This document shows, piece after piece, positions 17,000 to 26,381 of a stretch of 64,000 nt of DNA. The stretch's first letter is position 1. Every line of letters starts with the position of its first letter. Under the pieces are notes generated by a model. That model made no database searches and was not told where the DNA came from. It saw only the letters and a program-made list of their open reading frames with translations. The stretch is from an uncultured Clostridia bacterium (lineage in GTDB: Bacteria > Bacillota > Clostridia > TANB77 > CAG-508), in contig CANRCM010000001.1 in NCBI GenBank assembly GCA_947629085.1, forward strand, positions 8,059-72,058, read 5' to 3'. The position numbers and the translations under genes are program-made.

Positions 17000-18346
17000 T
17001 TATACTCCATATGCTGAGAATAAGAAATTTCCCATATAAACTTGAATACATGGTACTAATACAACTAATACAAAGAAAATTAATACTGCTCCAACGATAG
17101 CATAAACTATTTGAGGTAAAGCCTTCATAATTTTGTTTAATATATTATCTATATCAATTTCCATATATTCAACTAATTTTTCCATCATCTCAGTTAAATC
17201 TGTTTGCATACCTATTTTTAACATCTCAGTTATCATAGAGCTTGCTAATCCAGATTTTTCAAATGGTTCTATCCATGATGATCCCGTTATTATATTATTT
17301 AGAGAAGTTTCTATCATAGATAGCATAACATAATTTTGTACAACATTTTTACTTACATCTAAAGCATCTTGAATTCTCATTCCATTCTTTAAGTTTAATA
17401 ACATTGCTTTCATTAATCTTGAAAAGTCTATTGCAAATATTAACTCTCCAAATATTGGCATTTTATATTTAAAATAGTGAAAATTATATTTTCCTCTTGG
17501 TGTATGAATATAAAACAATATTCCTGCTATTACTATAAATATACTAGTTGTTGGTAAATACCAATATTTTATTAATCCATTTAGAAAACCTTGAAACCAT
17601 AGCGTGATTGTTGGAAGTGTTTCTTGCGTTCCTAATTCTTCAAAAACTTGTTGTATTGCTGGTATTGCTATTAATGTACCTACAAATAACATTACAATTA
17701 ATAATACAAATTGTATAATGTTTGGAATTAATATTGCTTTTAATTTTCTATGCATTGCTTGTGTATCATCTAAATATTTTACAGCTTGTTCTAATGAATT
17801 TGTTAAAGACCCTGATAATTCTCCAACCTTTATCATATTTATATATATATATGGAAATATATTAGAATAATATTCCATTGTTGTATACATAGATTCTCCC
17901 GCTTCTACACCTGCCAGTATATCTTCTAACACCCCTCTAAAGGATAAGTTTTCTGTGCTTTCAATCAATGTACTTAGTGCATGTATATTATTAAAATTAG
18001 CCTTTTTTAATAAATAAAAATTTTGGGTAAATACAACTATATCTCTTTGAGTTATTCTTTCTGTTCTTGCTAAATATAAATTTATTCTTTCTTTAGTAGT
18101 TAAATTTTTCTTCTTTTCTCCCAATTGTGTTGTATTAACATTTTTCATGATTTCTTGAATATCTGTTACGTTTTTTTTGCGTTTTCTTTGTGCATTTCTA
18201 GATCTATATGCTAATTGTTCTATAGATATTGGTAATAGTTTATTATTTTTTAGCATCTTTATCAATGATTGTCTACTATTAGCCTCTACCCTATTTTTTA
18301 CAATCTGTCCAGACTTAGTCATAGCTTTATACATATAGGTAGGCAT
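17000..18346 (-). CDS. pilC: type IV pilus platform protein (GspF/PilC family)
   Basis: 448-aa polytopic protein with the duplicated T2SS-F domain organisation, adjacent to pilT and pilB. Confidence 0.85.
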   Translation of the reverse strand: MPTYMYKAMTKSGQIVKNRVEANSRQSLIKMLKNNKLLPISIEQLAYRSRNAQRKRKKNVTDIQEIMKNVNTTQLGEKKKNLTTKERINLYLARTERITQRDIVVFTQNFYLLKKANFNNIHALSTLIESTENLSFRGVLEDILAGVEAGESMYTTMEYYSNIFPYIYINMIKVGELSGSLTNSLEQAVKYLDDTQAMHRKLKAILIPNIIQFVLLIVMLFVGTLIAIPAIQQVFEELGTQETLPTITLWFQGFLNGLIKYWYLPTTSIFIVIAGILFYIHTPRGKYNFHYFKYKMPIFGELIFAIDFSRLMKAMLLNLKNGMRIQDALDVSKNVVQNYVMLSMIETSLNNIITGSSWIEPFEKSGLASSMITEMLKIGMQTDLTEMMEKLVEYMEIDIDNILNKIMKALPQIVYAIVGAVLIFFVLVVLVPCIQVYMGNFLFSAYGV

Positions 18347-18363
18347 TCATTTTCCTCCTTTCT

Positions 18364-24042: not shown

Positions 24043-24765
24043 CTACTGTGCAACATTTGTATTTGTTGCATTTTTATTAACTGTGTTTTTTGTATTTGTC
24101 GTACTGTTTGAGTTTGTTGTATTATTTGTACTATTTGTATCTTGAATATTTTCTGTATTAATATTTTCTGGTGTTGTATTAGAAATATCTTTTATAGCAA
24201 TTTCTTTGCATGTAAAAGTTGCTTGTAACTCAGTATCACCATTTGAAGGAATCATTTTAAATTCTTCTATTTTAAATCCTAATGTGCTATCGTTTTCAAT
24301 ATCAGATATAAAATCTGTTATTGAAATATAGGTGCCTGTGACTGTAAATTTCAAATCGTATATTCCCTCACCTTTTGATGCGGATTTTACAACATCCATT
24401 TTTATTACTGCACCTTCACTTGTTGCATGATTTCCTAATTTTACCCATAAGGTCTCTATTTCGTATTTTTCTATTTGCCCTGTAGTTTGAGTTTGCCCAT
24501 CAGCTGATGTAATCATGCTTTCATAATTATTCTTGTCTTCTACTAATTTTTTTGTATTTGATTGTACATCACTTACTAATTGCTTGTAATCTTTTTCTGC
24601 AAGTTTTCCTGCCTCTTGTATTTTTTGATCTAAAGCTTCTGTTTCTGATTTTATTCCTAATATTCCTAATACCTTAAAATTTCCAAGTCCTATTCCTCTA
24701 ATCATAAGTAAACCTGAAAGTAATACTAATAAAACTATAAGGACTGATATCAATAATTTTTTCAT
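24043..24765 (-). CDS. PilO-like pilus assembly protein with an Asn/Thr-rich tail
   Basis: N-terminal TM helix, a coiled-coil and a beta-rich domain, positioned after pilM/N. The assignment rests on architecture and position only. Confidence 0.5.
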   Translation of the reverse strand: MKKLLISVLIVLLVLLSGLLMIRGIGLGNFKVLGILGIKSETEALDQKIQEAGKLAEKDYKQLVSDVQSNTKKLVEDKNNYESMITSADGQTQTTGQIEKYEIETLWVKLGNHATSEGAVIKMDVVKSASKGEGIYDLKFTVTGTYISITDFISDIENDSTLGFKIEEFKMIPSNGDTELQATFTCKEIAIKDISNTTPENINTENIQDTNSTNNTTNSNSTTNTKNTVNKNATNTNVAQ

Positions 24766-26381
24766 GGTAAATCTCCTTCTATTTTTACTGTAACATTATT
24801 ATTATCTTTTTGACCTGCTGTTGAAATAACATTTGTTAATATTACATCTGTTTTTATTTTAGCTTTTAAATAACCTAATTGTTCATATTTATTAGATTGT
24901 GCATTAATAACAATATGAGTATCTGTTGTATTTTCAATAGAAGTTAATTGAACATTTTCTGGTATTATTGACATTATTTGATTCAATAAATTAGGAATAG
25001 CATTTCTTGTTTTGTTTCTTTCTAATAATTTATCATTATTTTCTTCTAAATTTTTAATTAATGTTTCATAATCATTTATTTTAGTTTTAATTTTTTCATT
25101 ATCTTGATTTGCTAATGCAATTTGACTATTTGTTTGATTTATAGATTCTTGTGCTTCACTTTGTTTTTTATTTATTTGTGTTCTTAACAAAGAAGAAAAT
25201 CCTGTATATACAATAATTAGTAGTAGTAATCCTATTGCTCCTCTTAATAGATTCTTTTCTACATTATCTAACTTTTGATTTAAATCCCATGTTAATAAAT
25301 TGCTATGATCTTTTCTTTCTTTTGATTTTTTTCCTATTTTAATATCTTGCTTCAAGAAATCTGGTAATAAATCTATTAATGTTTGCTTCTTAAAGTTCAT
25401 TCCTGTTATACCTTCTCCTAGTCCCATTAACCCAATAGAAATAGCAGAGTTGACTTCTATATAATCTTTAATACTTAAATCTTTTACTTTATTTATAAAA
25501 TACGGTTTTAATATTTCACACGTTGTATCTGGTAAATATTCTTGGAAATATAAATCAACATTATTTATTAAAGCCCCTGTACCTGTAATATATACTTTTT
25601 CAAATCTTTCTGTATAATTACCCATTATTTTTTTTACATTTTCTACTATATCAAATAATGTAGGCATTATATCTTCTAAATATGTTGTTTCATCATTTTG
25701 TAACTCTTTTCCTTCTGAAGTATATATTGTTGTATCTTTACAAATTTCATAAGATTTTGCATATGAATTTTCTTTTAAATTTATTTTTGTTAATATGTCT
25801 AGACTTCCTTCATCTAACAAATCTACATTATATATTTTATTTCCTAAAATAGTAGTAATTGTTGTTTTTTCTTCTATATTAACAATAATACAATTTGTAT
25901 CTTTATTTATTTTAACTAAATTAGGGATTGACATAGAAATAGGCGATACATTAACTAGTTTATATCCATCTATTTCTTGCATTCTTTTATTTAGTTCTAT
26001 TTTATTTTCTGCAATGTGTATAATTTTAATTTTTTGTTTATCTGTTGGATTTTCTGTAACAGCATATCTTACTTCAAAAGCATTAGGATTGTATTCTTTT
26101 TCTGTACAATAAGAATCAAATTCTGTTTTTATAGCTTTTTGTAAGTCACTTTTTGTAAGCAAAGAAAACATATCAAAATAATTGTACATTTCTTCTGATA
26201 TATTTATACTAATTGGTATCTTTTGACTGTATGTTTCCTTTATAATTTGTGAAATTGCATCATTAATTTTATCATAAAATTTAACACCAAATGCTTCTAC
26301 TTTTATATTATCACGTTCTTTTGTAACTTTCGCATATTTAATTAGATGTTCTTCTATATATAGTCCTAAACAACTTGACAT
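24762..26381 (-). CDS. pilM: PilM-PilN fusion protein (actin-like ATPase domain + TM + coiled-coil/PilN-like domain)
   Basis: The ~330-aa N-terminal part is PilM-like. It is followed by the TM helix 'LLRGAIGLLLLIIVYTGFSSLL' and a PilN-like C-terminal part. Confidence 0.7.
   Translation of the reverse strand: MSSCLGLYIEEHLIKYAKVTKERDNIKVEAFGVKFYDKINDAISQIIKETYSQKIPISINISEEMYNYFDMFSLLTKSDLQKAIKTEFDSYCTEKEYNPNAFEVRYAVTENPTDKQKIKIIHIAENKIELNKRMQEIDGYKLVNVSPISMSIPNLVKINKDTNCIIVNIEEKTTITTILGNKIYNVDLLDEGSLDILTKINLKENSYAKSYEICKDTTIYTSEGKELQNDETTYLEDIMPTLFDIVENVKKIMGNYTERFEKVYITGTGALINNVDLYFQEYLPDTTCEILKPYFINKVKDLSIKDYIEVNSAISIGLMGLGEGITGMNFKKQTLIDLLPDFLKQDIKIGKKSKERKDHSNLLTWDLNQKLDNVEKNLLRGAIGLLLLIIVYTGFSSLLRTQINKKQSEAQESINQTNSQIALANQDNEKIKTKINDYETLIKNLEENNDKLLERNKTRNAIPNLLNQIMSIIPENVQLTSIENTTDTHIVINAQSNKYEQLGYLKAKIKTDVILTNVISTAGQKDNNNVTVKIEGDLP

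Follow-up and report, generated by a model that had tools for sequence, protein, structure and literature searches.

Glu5, the glutamate at position +5 of the mature pilin, and a prepilin peptidase with two aspartates are both treated as defining and essential in bacterial type IV filaments. Can a pilus locus that seems to have given up both still encode a working filament? The question is raised by a 64-kb stretch of DNA from an uncultured Clostridia bacterium (contig CANRCM010000001.1; 64,000 nucleotides, the whole of which we call the window), where ten tightly packed open reading frames (ORFs) lie on the minus strand at 17000-26381. The original prediction had described them as a complete retractile type IV pilus locus whose pilins all lack Glu5, and its coordinates and strand proved correct. 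Our answer, held with moderate confidence and drawn from sequence comparison, is that the locus probably encodes a functional, lineage-specific type IVa pilus variant of monoderm Clostridia, which would pack without Glu5 and whose in-locus PilD would be dead as a peptidase. What appears to be new is a type IVa pilus variant that combines major pilins carrying Ala5 (or Thr5 or Val5) with a PilD devoid of the protease signature, conserved across many uncultured gut Clostridia; it seems that two textbook rules of bacterial pilus biogenesis, Glu5 and the two-aspartate peptidase, do not hold here.

Five proteins in the window begin with a pilin-like head, and none of the five has Glu5: three carry Ile1 and Ala5, one Ser5 and one Asp5, just as had been claimed. 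The Ala5 heads belong to a protein of 143 amino acids (aa) encoded at 23032-23463 (MKNQKG↓ITLIALV, the arrow marking the presumed cleavage site) and to two large unlinked proteins at 3104-4510 (MKKGTKG↓ITLIALV) and 54252-56009 (..YKG↓ITLIALV), while the remaining two belong to minor pilins at 21159-21671 (MKDQKG↓ITLISL) and 21673-22071 (MKSEKG↓YTGVDI). A six-frame pattern scan of the whole window found no further class-III-like head and no Glu5 head. Ala5 is in register with the Glu5 of solved pilins: a weak profile match (E 0.016) pairs MKNQKG↓ITLIALV with MKRQQG↓FTLIELV of MshA, so that Ile1 corresponds to Phe1 and Ala5 to Glu5. The layout of a class III signal peptide is present (MKNQKG↓ITLIALVITIIVLLILAGVSIAML): about 21 hydrophobic residues come after a short hydrophilic leader whose last residue is Gly. 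On the N_methyl hidden Markov model (HMM; PF07963/IPR012902) the 143-aa protein scores 22.4 bits, above the cut-off of 21.2, the two large Ala5 proteins stay below it (12.2 and 14.3 bits), and the Ser5 and Asp5 minor pilins give no match.

We compared these heads with those of relatives in 1.6 Mb of readable DNA around such loci, made up of the window and about 20 kb per relative. To find the relatives, patterns derived from a 12-sequence PilD alignment were run against one genome for each GTDB species; at least 578 related stretches were returned, and results given below for 80 species refer to the best 80 of these. All of the best 80 are uncultured 'Clostridium sp.' or 'Clostridia bacterium' metagenome-assembled genomes from the gut of humans, mice, rabbits and other animals, Clostridium sp. 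CAG:343 and CAG:440 among them. Across the 80 species the leaders of the Ala5, Ser5 and Asp5 classes are 6-8 residues long and end in (Q/N/E)(K/R/N)G. The Ser5 class, (I/V)TLISLT, recurs in a conserved position (73 ORFs matched), and the Asp5 class, (Y/F)TG(I/V)DI, is always encoded by the gene directly after PilD (65 ORFs matched). There is exactly one minor pilin with an acidic residue 5 per locus. Among its orthologues, that of a single clade species (L053) and those of sister lineages have Glu5; apart from these orthologues, no class III head with Glu5 was found in the 1.6 Mb. The statement that all pilins lack Glu5 is therefore literally true of the window, but it understates the presence of a conserved acidic-5 minor pilin.

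The Ala5 head itself was surveyed in a metagenomic protein collection, which yielded more than 7,772 homologues of the 143-aa protein; head counts were taken from the top 120. The motif G(I/V)TL(I/V)(A/S)LV is present in 118 of the 120 and reads exactly GITLIALVITIIVLLILAGVSI in 104, and residue +5 in the 118 readable heads is Ala in 117 and Ser in one. The 78 identical copies of the 27-aa head GITLIALVITIIVLLILAGVSIAMLTG are encoded by 76 different DNA sequences, the major-allele frequency in the head codons being 0.72 at third positions and 0.98 at first and second positions, and GCT, GCA, GCC and GCG are all used for Ala5. A single transversion would turn Ala5 into Glu, yet no head of the Ala5 class has Glu there. 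This synonymous variation, and the fact that Glu never appears though it is one mutation away, argue that Ala5 is selected at the peptide level; judged by these codon patterns, the head peptide, Ala5 included, is under strong purifying selection. The synonymous variation also excludes conservation acting on the DNA itself, or gene conversion, as the reason why the head is so constant. We likewise considered and rejected an ordinary Sec signal peptide, with a possible SIA↓M site, since the extreme conservation runs past that site and the head is in the class III register. As a separate observation, all 78 head copies encode Gly-1 by GGT, while GGT, GGG and GGA are used freely for the other two glycines of the head; the codon of the cleavage-site glycine might itself be constrained, or the early coding region might have an effect.

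Is the 143-aa protein the major subunit? Its identity to the window sequence across the 80 species is 93% in the head (residues 7-40) and 19% in the remainder, as would be expected if an assembly helix carried an exposed globular part that evolves fast. The gene lies directly upstream of PilD in every covered locus, in one to three tandem copies, and is preceded by a strong ribosome-binding site, AAAGGGGGT (AAAGGGGGU). An AlphaFold2 (AF2) model (pLDDT 86.2) shows helices at residues 5-31 and 36-68 with a break at 32-35 (TGENG) between them, then a short helical loop and four strands, which suggests a pilin-type topology; a Foldseek search of the model against the PDB gave nothing below E 0.3, a result that is uninformative since long-helix pilins are poorly retrieved. 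A tblastn search of the pilin against phage and plasmid collections found no match. With its place beside PilD, its tandem copies, its conserved head, the strong ribosome-binding site and a downstream hairpin described below, the Ala5 protein seems the likeliest major subunit, as had been proposed. The two large Ala5 proteins have mutually unrelated C-terminal parts, that of the 468-aa protein being without a recognisable domain, and the 585-aa protein would shorten to about 558 aa if its start is MSKHGYKG. They look like modular pilins able to display adhesin- or enzyme-like modules on a filament.

The second departure concerns PilD. In prepilin peptidases both aspartates form the active site, the second one lying in GXGD, both are needed for cleavage, and cleavage is a prerequisite for assembly (PMC3584216; Berry and Pelicic review, PMC4471445). 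Taken at face value, the naming of a PilD in the window does not hold up: the second catalytic Asp is missing, and the protein matches PF06750 and fails PF01478 (Peptidase_A24) even at E<=10. PF01478 is equally unmatched by the 120 closest homologues and by P0241, P0244 and P0245. Relatives with GXGD score 32.5-74 bits on it, among them members of the GIDKE group with PIGxGDIKY (P0279 39.1, P0280 32.5 and P0286 48.1 bits). An HMM of 14 canonical PilDs aligns with the window protein over its full length (166 bits) and sets 'lGlGDvKl' opposite 'PYVNGILL', and MAFFT sets the canonical GxGD(V/I)K opposite 'YVNGILL', with Ile/Gly at the position of Asp; the dipeptide GD occurs nowhere in the window PilD. 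The GXGD Asp is missing in 80 of 80 species, where the site reads (S/T)Y(V/T)(T/N)G(I)LL. The first catalytic Asp is kept, as Asp126 in GIDLE, with Glu instead in three PilD sequences of the loci examined.

The N-terminal zinc/methyltransferase module, by comparison, is intact (C40xxC43-x21-C65xxC68, with G63-K64 before the third Cys) and is the best-conserved part of PilD, at 79%, the membrane domain standing at 57-64%. Aly et al. tied the zinc-site cysteines and the Gly-basic pair before the third Cys to N-methylation, not to cleavage (PMC3584216). The AF2 model of PilD (pLDDT 80.3) has eight helices, and Foldseek against the PDB returned spurious membrane proteins only. We also searched every ORF of the window and of 90 loci (1.6 Mb) with the 14-PilD HMM: each locus has exactly one PilD-type gene, and no second prepilin peptidase came up. 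On these sequence grounds the in-locus PilD is most likely dead as a peptidase and kept for its zinc/methyltransferase N-module or for a docking role.

Searching 1.84 billion cluster representatives with PilD brought up a graded series of relatives. In sister loci with an intact PilD (L005, L006, L087/88 and L091/92) the first minor pilin has Glu5 (G↓YSLIEIG) and the second Thr5 or Ser5, and in L091 three paralogous pilins with Thr5, G↓(V/I)SLITLVITIV, lie beside the intact PilD. This Thr5 family is small (55 proteins) and its head is equally invariant. Since these sister loci pair an intact PilD with Thr5 pilins, non-Glu5 major-type pilins would therefore predate the loss of the PilD Asp and coexist with a presumably active peptidase, the Ala5 family being a large later expansion. 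A more distant Asp-less locus (L089, PilD 45% identical to that of the window) again has Ala5, Asp5 and Ser5 pilins. Apart from these results, pilB in L091 (GCA_002308995.1, 10040-11697), and also in L092, is called as three fragments (230, 146 and 103 aa), and no PilT-sized gene is listed between PilB and PilC in L091; this lineage may hold a decaying or non-retractile version of the system.

The Asp seems to have been lost more than once. P0305, found on contigs from two different samples, reads SFGIIKY where the intact P0289 (59% identical) has GYGDIKY, which by this comparison is a second, independent loss. In about 14 representative clusters (P0299, P0313, P0320, P0322-P0324, P0326, P0327, P0329, P0330, P0336, P0341, P0347 and P0351) the peptidase domain is deleted altogether and the PilD N-module is fused in frame to the acidic-5 minor pilin, giving proteins of 247-286 aa with an internal ..KKG↓VFISELV.. 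motif and Glu5 or Asp5. One such fusion (L095, 9001-9819) sits within an otherwise complete PilMN-O-ST-pilin-[fusion]-minor-PilB-PilT-PilC cluster, whose pilin has Val5 (G↓ISLIVLV) and which has no separate peptidase nearby. In the C-terminal half of 71 full-length Asp-less cluster representatives, Asp126 is present in 77% and Glu128 in 61%, and no other acidic column reaches 50%. The second loss of Asp, the domain deletions, the lack of another conserved acidic column and the completeness of L095 without a peptidase point to in-locus peptidase activity being dispensable in this group of loci, with the N-module kept and functionally tied to the acidic-5 minor pilin.

The gene content, motifs, conservation, synteny and loss of Asp observed in these loci allow us to outline how such a filament may be assembled, from which major subunit, with what packing and after cleavage by which enzyme. 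PilB, PilC and the PilN-containing fusion protein would extend the filament and PilT would retract it. The main building block of the filament would be the Ala5 pilin, whose gene immediately precedes PilD, and the invariant head would also let the larger modular proteins (468 and 585 aa) join as adhesin-like subunits. Without an acidic +5 in the major subunits, the salt bridge from Glu5 to the N-terminal amine is unusable; the proposal that subunits register differently from the Glu5 salt bridge thus stands, and it may be that the helices of the filament core pack purely by hydrophobic and Thr/Ser contacts, as in archaeal pilins. The acidic-5 minor pilin, encoded directly after PilD, probably acts in the priming complex. 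Prepilins would still be cut at G↓I, as is suggested by the strict retention of Gly-1 and of a six-residue basic leader ending in Lys-Gly. Our best guess for the enzyme is an unlinked A24 peptidase, to which we give about an even chance.

This arrangement may be set beside known filaments. Monoderm type IVa pili (the C. difficile PilA1 cluster, C. perfringens, S. sanguinis PilE1/E2) share the short six-residue basic leader ending in Gly, and S. sanguinis PilB/PilC are likewise modular pilins with large C-terminal domains (PMC6916266). Their major pilins have Glu5 (PMC10628169) and their PilD both aspartates, unlike the Ala5 pilin (Thr5 or Val5 in relatives) and the PilD without the GXGD Asp described here; the major pilins R. 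albus GP25, C. difficile PilA1 and S. sanguinis PilE1/E2 have canonical signal peptides and Glu5 (PMC6916266). Archaeal type IV pilins and archaellins often lack Glu5 (PMC4471445) and provide the working analogy for Ala5 packing, yet their PibD/FlaK/EppA enzymes have both aspartates and their leaders, ATPase and platform are of archaeal type, whereas the leader (MKNQKG) and PilB/PilT/PilC of the window are of the bacterial type IVa kind. Bacterial subunits without Glu5 are otherwise apex subunits only, for the accepted reason that no subunit lies above them (PMC10628169). Apex pilins (GspK, PilX/PilK, S. sanguinis PilA) share the pilin-like head without Glu5, but each is a lone tip subunit of low abundance; here the situation is reversed, since the major-type pilins, encoded in the locus in several copies, and the modular pilins are without the acid and one minor pilin keeps it.

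PilD of the A24A family of MEROPS (P. aeruginosa PilD, V. cholerae TcpJ) resembles the window protein in full-length homology, in the first Asp within I-D-x-E, in the CxxC-x21-CxxC zinc site and in the Gly and basic residue before the third Cys; it differs at the GXGD Asp, replaced here by Ile/Gly, and in the PF01478 match. By this comparison the window PilD would be a pseudo-enzyme in its protease half. The closest published account of pili in comparable organisms concerns the Tad-like cluster of the uncultured gut order TANB77 (Kim et al. 2024, PMC11680825), organisms that NCBI often names 'Clostridium sp. CAG:nnn' (PMC11680825). That cluster too consists of pilus genes in uncultured, low-GC, reduced-genome gut Clostridia with many unannotated single-transmembrane pilin-like proteins (PMC11680825), but its CpaB, TadZ, CpaE, TadA/CpaF and TadBC make up a different machine and locus (PMC11680825). 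No Tad cluster was found in the window or in the DNA of the relatives' loci, and PMC11680825 makes no mention of a PilB/PilT/PilC locus, of the Ala5 head or of the state of PilD. In the searchable literature we found no description of an Asp-less PilD and no paper containing the Ala5 head motif, nor any that connects CAG-343 or CAG-440 with TANB77.

Which other explanations might account for these loci? The one that survives best is that prepilins are cut by no A24 peptidase at all, being processed by another enzyme or used uncleaved; if uncleaved, the output of the machine would differ, for instance a membrane-anchored display or a short piston-like structure. It would accommodate the loss of Asp at least twice and the deletion of the domain elsewhere with loci left intact, the failure to find a second PilD in the 1.6 Mb around the loci, and the acidic-5 pilin module that in the fusions is tethered to three transmembrane helices. 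We nonetheless think it unlikely, though deserving of some weight: no studied system assembles without cleavage (PMC3584216), a Lys-rich leader is incompatible with a hydrophobic filament core, the strictly kept Gly-1 and six-residue leader are hard to explain without processing, and a PilT kept at 83% identity implies a dynamic filament. A broader reading of the whole group, which we offer as a speculative and rather unlikely one, is that these Clostridia build dynamic filaments with no acidic +5 in the major subunits and with no maturation by a GXGD aspartyl peptidase, PilD serving as a peptidase-dead methyltransferase or docking module; either an unrelated enzyme would cleave or there would be a new assembly route.

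It is also conceivable that the in-locus PilD still acts as a prepilin peptidase through a rewired site, Asp126 being joined, in place of the GXGD Asp, by another acid such as Asp176, at the cytoplasmic end of the preceding helix, or Glu205. All 120 closest homologues have Asp126, Glu128, Asp176 and Glu205, and in the 80 species these four residues hardly vary, the membrane domain is not decaying, and the stereotyped leader and Gly-1 suggest that cleavage continues; in the AF2 model the helix boundaries would place Asp126 and Asp176 at helix ends beside cytoplasmic loops. In the wider Asp-less set of 71 representatives, however, conservation of Asp176 and Glu205 breaks down, sisters with GXGD already carry Asp176, which hence is no compensating change, and some lineages have removed the whole domain, so we regard rewiring as improbable. 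Least probable of all, and in our opinion quite doubtful, is that the Ala5 proteins are accessory or modular subunits, or unrelated signal-anchored surface proteins, and that the true major pilin, with Glu5, has its gene in another part of the genome: genes for major pilins need not lie beside the machinery, our reading covered a small part of each genome, the Ala5 head also stands on large modular proteins and Foldseek gave no pilin match, but the Ala5 gene adjoins PilD in every covered locus, often in tandem, the sole Glu5 heads in 1.6 Mb are orthologues of the acidic-5 minor pilin, the head is under extreme peptide-level selection in the class III register, and sister and cousin lineages have Thr5 or Val5 pilins in the same locus.

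Several points weigh against a functional variant that packs without Glu5 and carries a peptidase-dead PilD. The filament system is known from gene sequences, in organisms that are uncultured. The 64-kb window and about 20 kb per relative yielded no Glu5 major pilin and no second peptidase, and either might be encoded beyond these stretches. The near-invariance of Asp126, Asp176 and Glu205 in the sub-clade of the window, with a membrane domain conserved at 57-64%, fits a rewired site too. Neither the pilin nor the PilD model had a significant Foldseek match, and fold membership is argued from topology and sequence. Finally, two apparent single-base frameshifts in housekeeping genes mean that the window sequence is not error-free; unlike these frameshifts, the Asp-less state of PilD is common to hundreds of independent assemblies.

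The role of Glu5 has been called 'incompletely understood' (PMC10628169). The loci described here form a natural comparative series of at least 80 species and thousands of pilin variants, with intermediate states in sister lineages (Thr5 with an intact PilD, independent loss of Asp, deletion of the domain), which could be used to test the purpose of Glu5, of N-terminal processing and of a stand-alone PilD methyltransferase module. Such systems will be under-annotated by motif- and HMM-based tools that look for Glu5 in pilins or PF01478 in PilD; the precomputed Pfam field is almost always empty for the pilin homologues. In these abundant, uncultured gut commensals, surface filaments and modular pilin-headed proteins are likely to be structures for contact with host or substrate.

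The rest of the locus (Table 1) is of type IVa style, and HMM matches support the extension ATPase, the PilT-type ATPase and the platform protein that had been recognised in it. Gene order, PilMN-O-S/T-A5 pilin(x1-3)-PilD-D5-S5-PilB-PilT-PilC, is constant in the 80 species where the contig covers it, and mean identity to the window proteins is 83% for PilT, 79% for PilC, 76% for PilB and 65% for PilD; from these values the pilus machine is under purifying selection. The 539-aa protein, first gene of the kept order (mean identity 68%), had been called PilM/N. Its PilN part finds support, with a Pfam match that is weak in the window protein (E 0.026) and present in 15 of 18 orthologues (best E 1.4e-5); its PilM part does not, as Pfam, NCBIfam and PDB sequence and profile searches gave no match for the N-terminal part of about 330 aa. 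In position and architecture the proteins at this end of the locus would suit PilM, PilN and PilO. In the same gene list PilB, PilT, PilC and the pilin are supported by HMMs, while two labels stand by position only: the PilO-like protein gave no family signal in Pfam, NCBIfam or PDB profile searches, and the Ser/Thr-rich protein gave no family match in Pfam or NCBIfam.

Table 1 Pilus locus of the window and unlinked proteins with the same head (arrow, presumed cleavage site)
Feature	Coordinates	Strand	Remarks
Modular protein, unlinked, 468 aa	3104-4510	-	Ala5 head MKKGTKG↓ITLIALVITIIVILILAGV; N_methyl 12.2 bits
PilC platform protein	17000-18346	-	T2SSF E 4.6e-29; GspF/PilC models
PilT-type retraction ATPase	18364-19467	-	TIGR01420 316.8 bits, just below the 319.1 cut-off; T2SSE E 2.9e-43
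PilB extension ATPase with N-terminal MshEN-type domain	19491-21140	-	T2SSE E 4.9e-103; MshEN 1.2e-5; TIGR02538 423 bits
Minor pilin, Ser5	21159-21671	-	MKDQKG↓ITLISLTIYII; class-III-like head
Minor pilin, Asp5	21673-22071	-	MKSEKG↓YTGVDIAISIVV; class-III-like head
PilD homologue without GXGD aspartate (probable pseudo-peptidase)	22128-22946	-	A24_N_bact (PF06750) only, E 6.4e-30
Hairpin	22969-22997	-	Between pilin and PilD genes
Candidate major pilin, 143 aa	23032-23463	-	MKNQKG↓ITLIALVITIIVLLILAGVSIAMLTGENGILTKA; Ile1, Ala5; N_methyl 22.4 bits
Single-pass membrane protein with Ser/Thr-rich tail, 161 aa	23543-24028	-	Conserved position; mean identity 49%
Single-pass membrane protein, PilO position, 240 aa	24043-24765	-	Conserved position; mean identity 52%
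Fusion protein, 539 aa	24762-26381	-	Cytoplasmic N-terminal domain (PilM position), one transmembrane helix, coiled coil, PilN-like C-terminal domain
Modular protein, unlinked, 585 aa	54252-56009	-	Ala5 head; weak GLUG-motif repeats (Glug E 0.0073); N_methyl 14.3 bits

A competence (Com) pseudopilus was considered and rejected, as the ComGA/ComGB models fall far short of their cut-offs and are outscored by the PilB/PilT/GspF models, and PilT and a PilN-containing protein are present. Residues 15-65 of PilB reach 36.6 bits (cut-off 38) on the model of an MshE-related motif that binds cyclic di-GMP, and the Pfam MshEN match covers residues 75-157; judged by its N-terminus, extension may be regulated by cyclic di-GMP.

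Between the pilin and PilD genes lies a hairpin with a 12-bp stem, AGCCAUACGCAC-ACUAA-GUGUGUAUGGCU (dG -20.1 kcal/mol, z -6.6), in which GCCAUACGCAC pairs with GUGUGUAUGGC next to a flanking A-U pair and a G.U wobble is fixed. The G.U wobble pairs in the sense RNA only, and the antisense fold is weaker. Of 95 sequences, 77 have a stem of this very sequence, in a single copy per locus about 50 nt ahead of the PilD start: it is found at the same position in the window, in L001-L004 and in about 72 of L007-L086. L005, L006 and L087-L094 lack it; the sister loci with an intact PilD are among them. What is conserved is the stem sequence itself, with no covariation; the central three loop bases vary and the flanks are unalignable. 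The hairpin has no Rfam match and no U-tract directly after it, and an Rfam scan of the locus gave a single chance-level microRNA match. It is unlike a plain terminator; it could serve as an operator or as a processing site, or be an RNA element to which a protein binds.

Elsewhere in the window two genes are interrupted. A GH25 lysozyme/LysM gene (14677-15946, plus strand) is read as two overlapping ORFs of 218 and 229 aa, with a single-base frameshift near 15321; in relatives it is a single 417-aa gene (L001, 17392-18645), and the split is either an assembly error or a pseudogene. The pyruvate formate-lyase gene (50617-52855, plus strand) is divided into ORFs of 647 and 146 aa by a shift near 52445, apparently caused by a single surplus C (GAT C GGA AGA, where the protein should read TPDGRPAG). 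The two breaks together suggest occasional single-base assembly errors. The G+C content of the window is about 26%, and sporulation genes are present, for example SpoIVA at 48885-50363.

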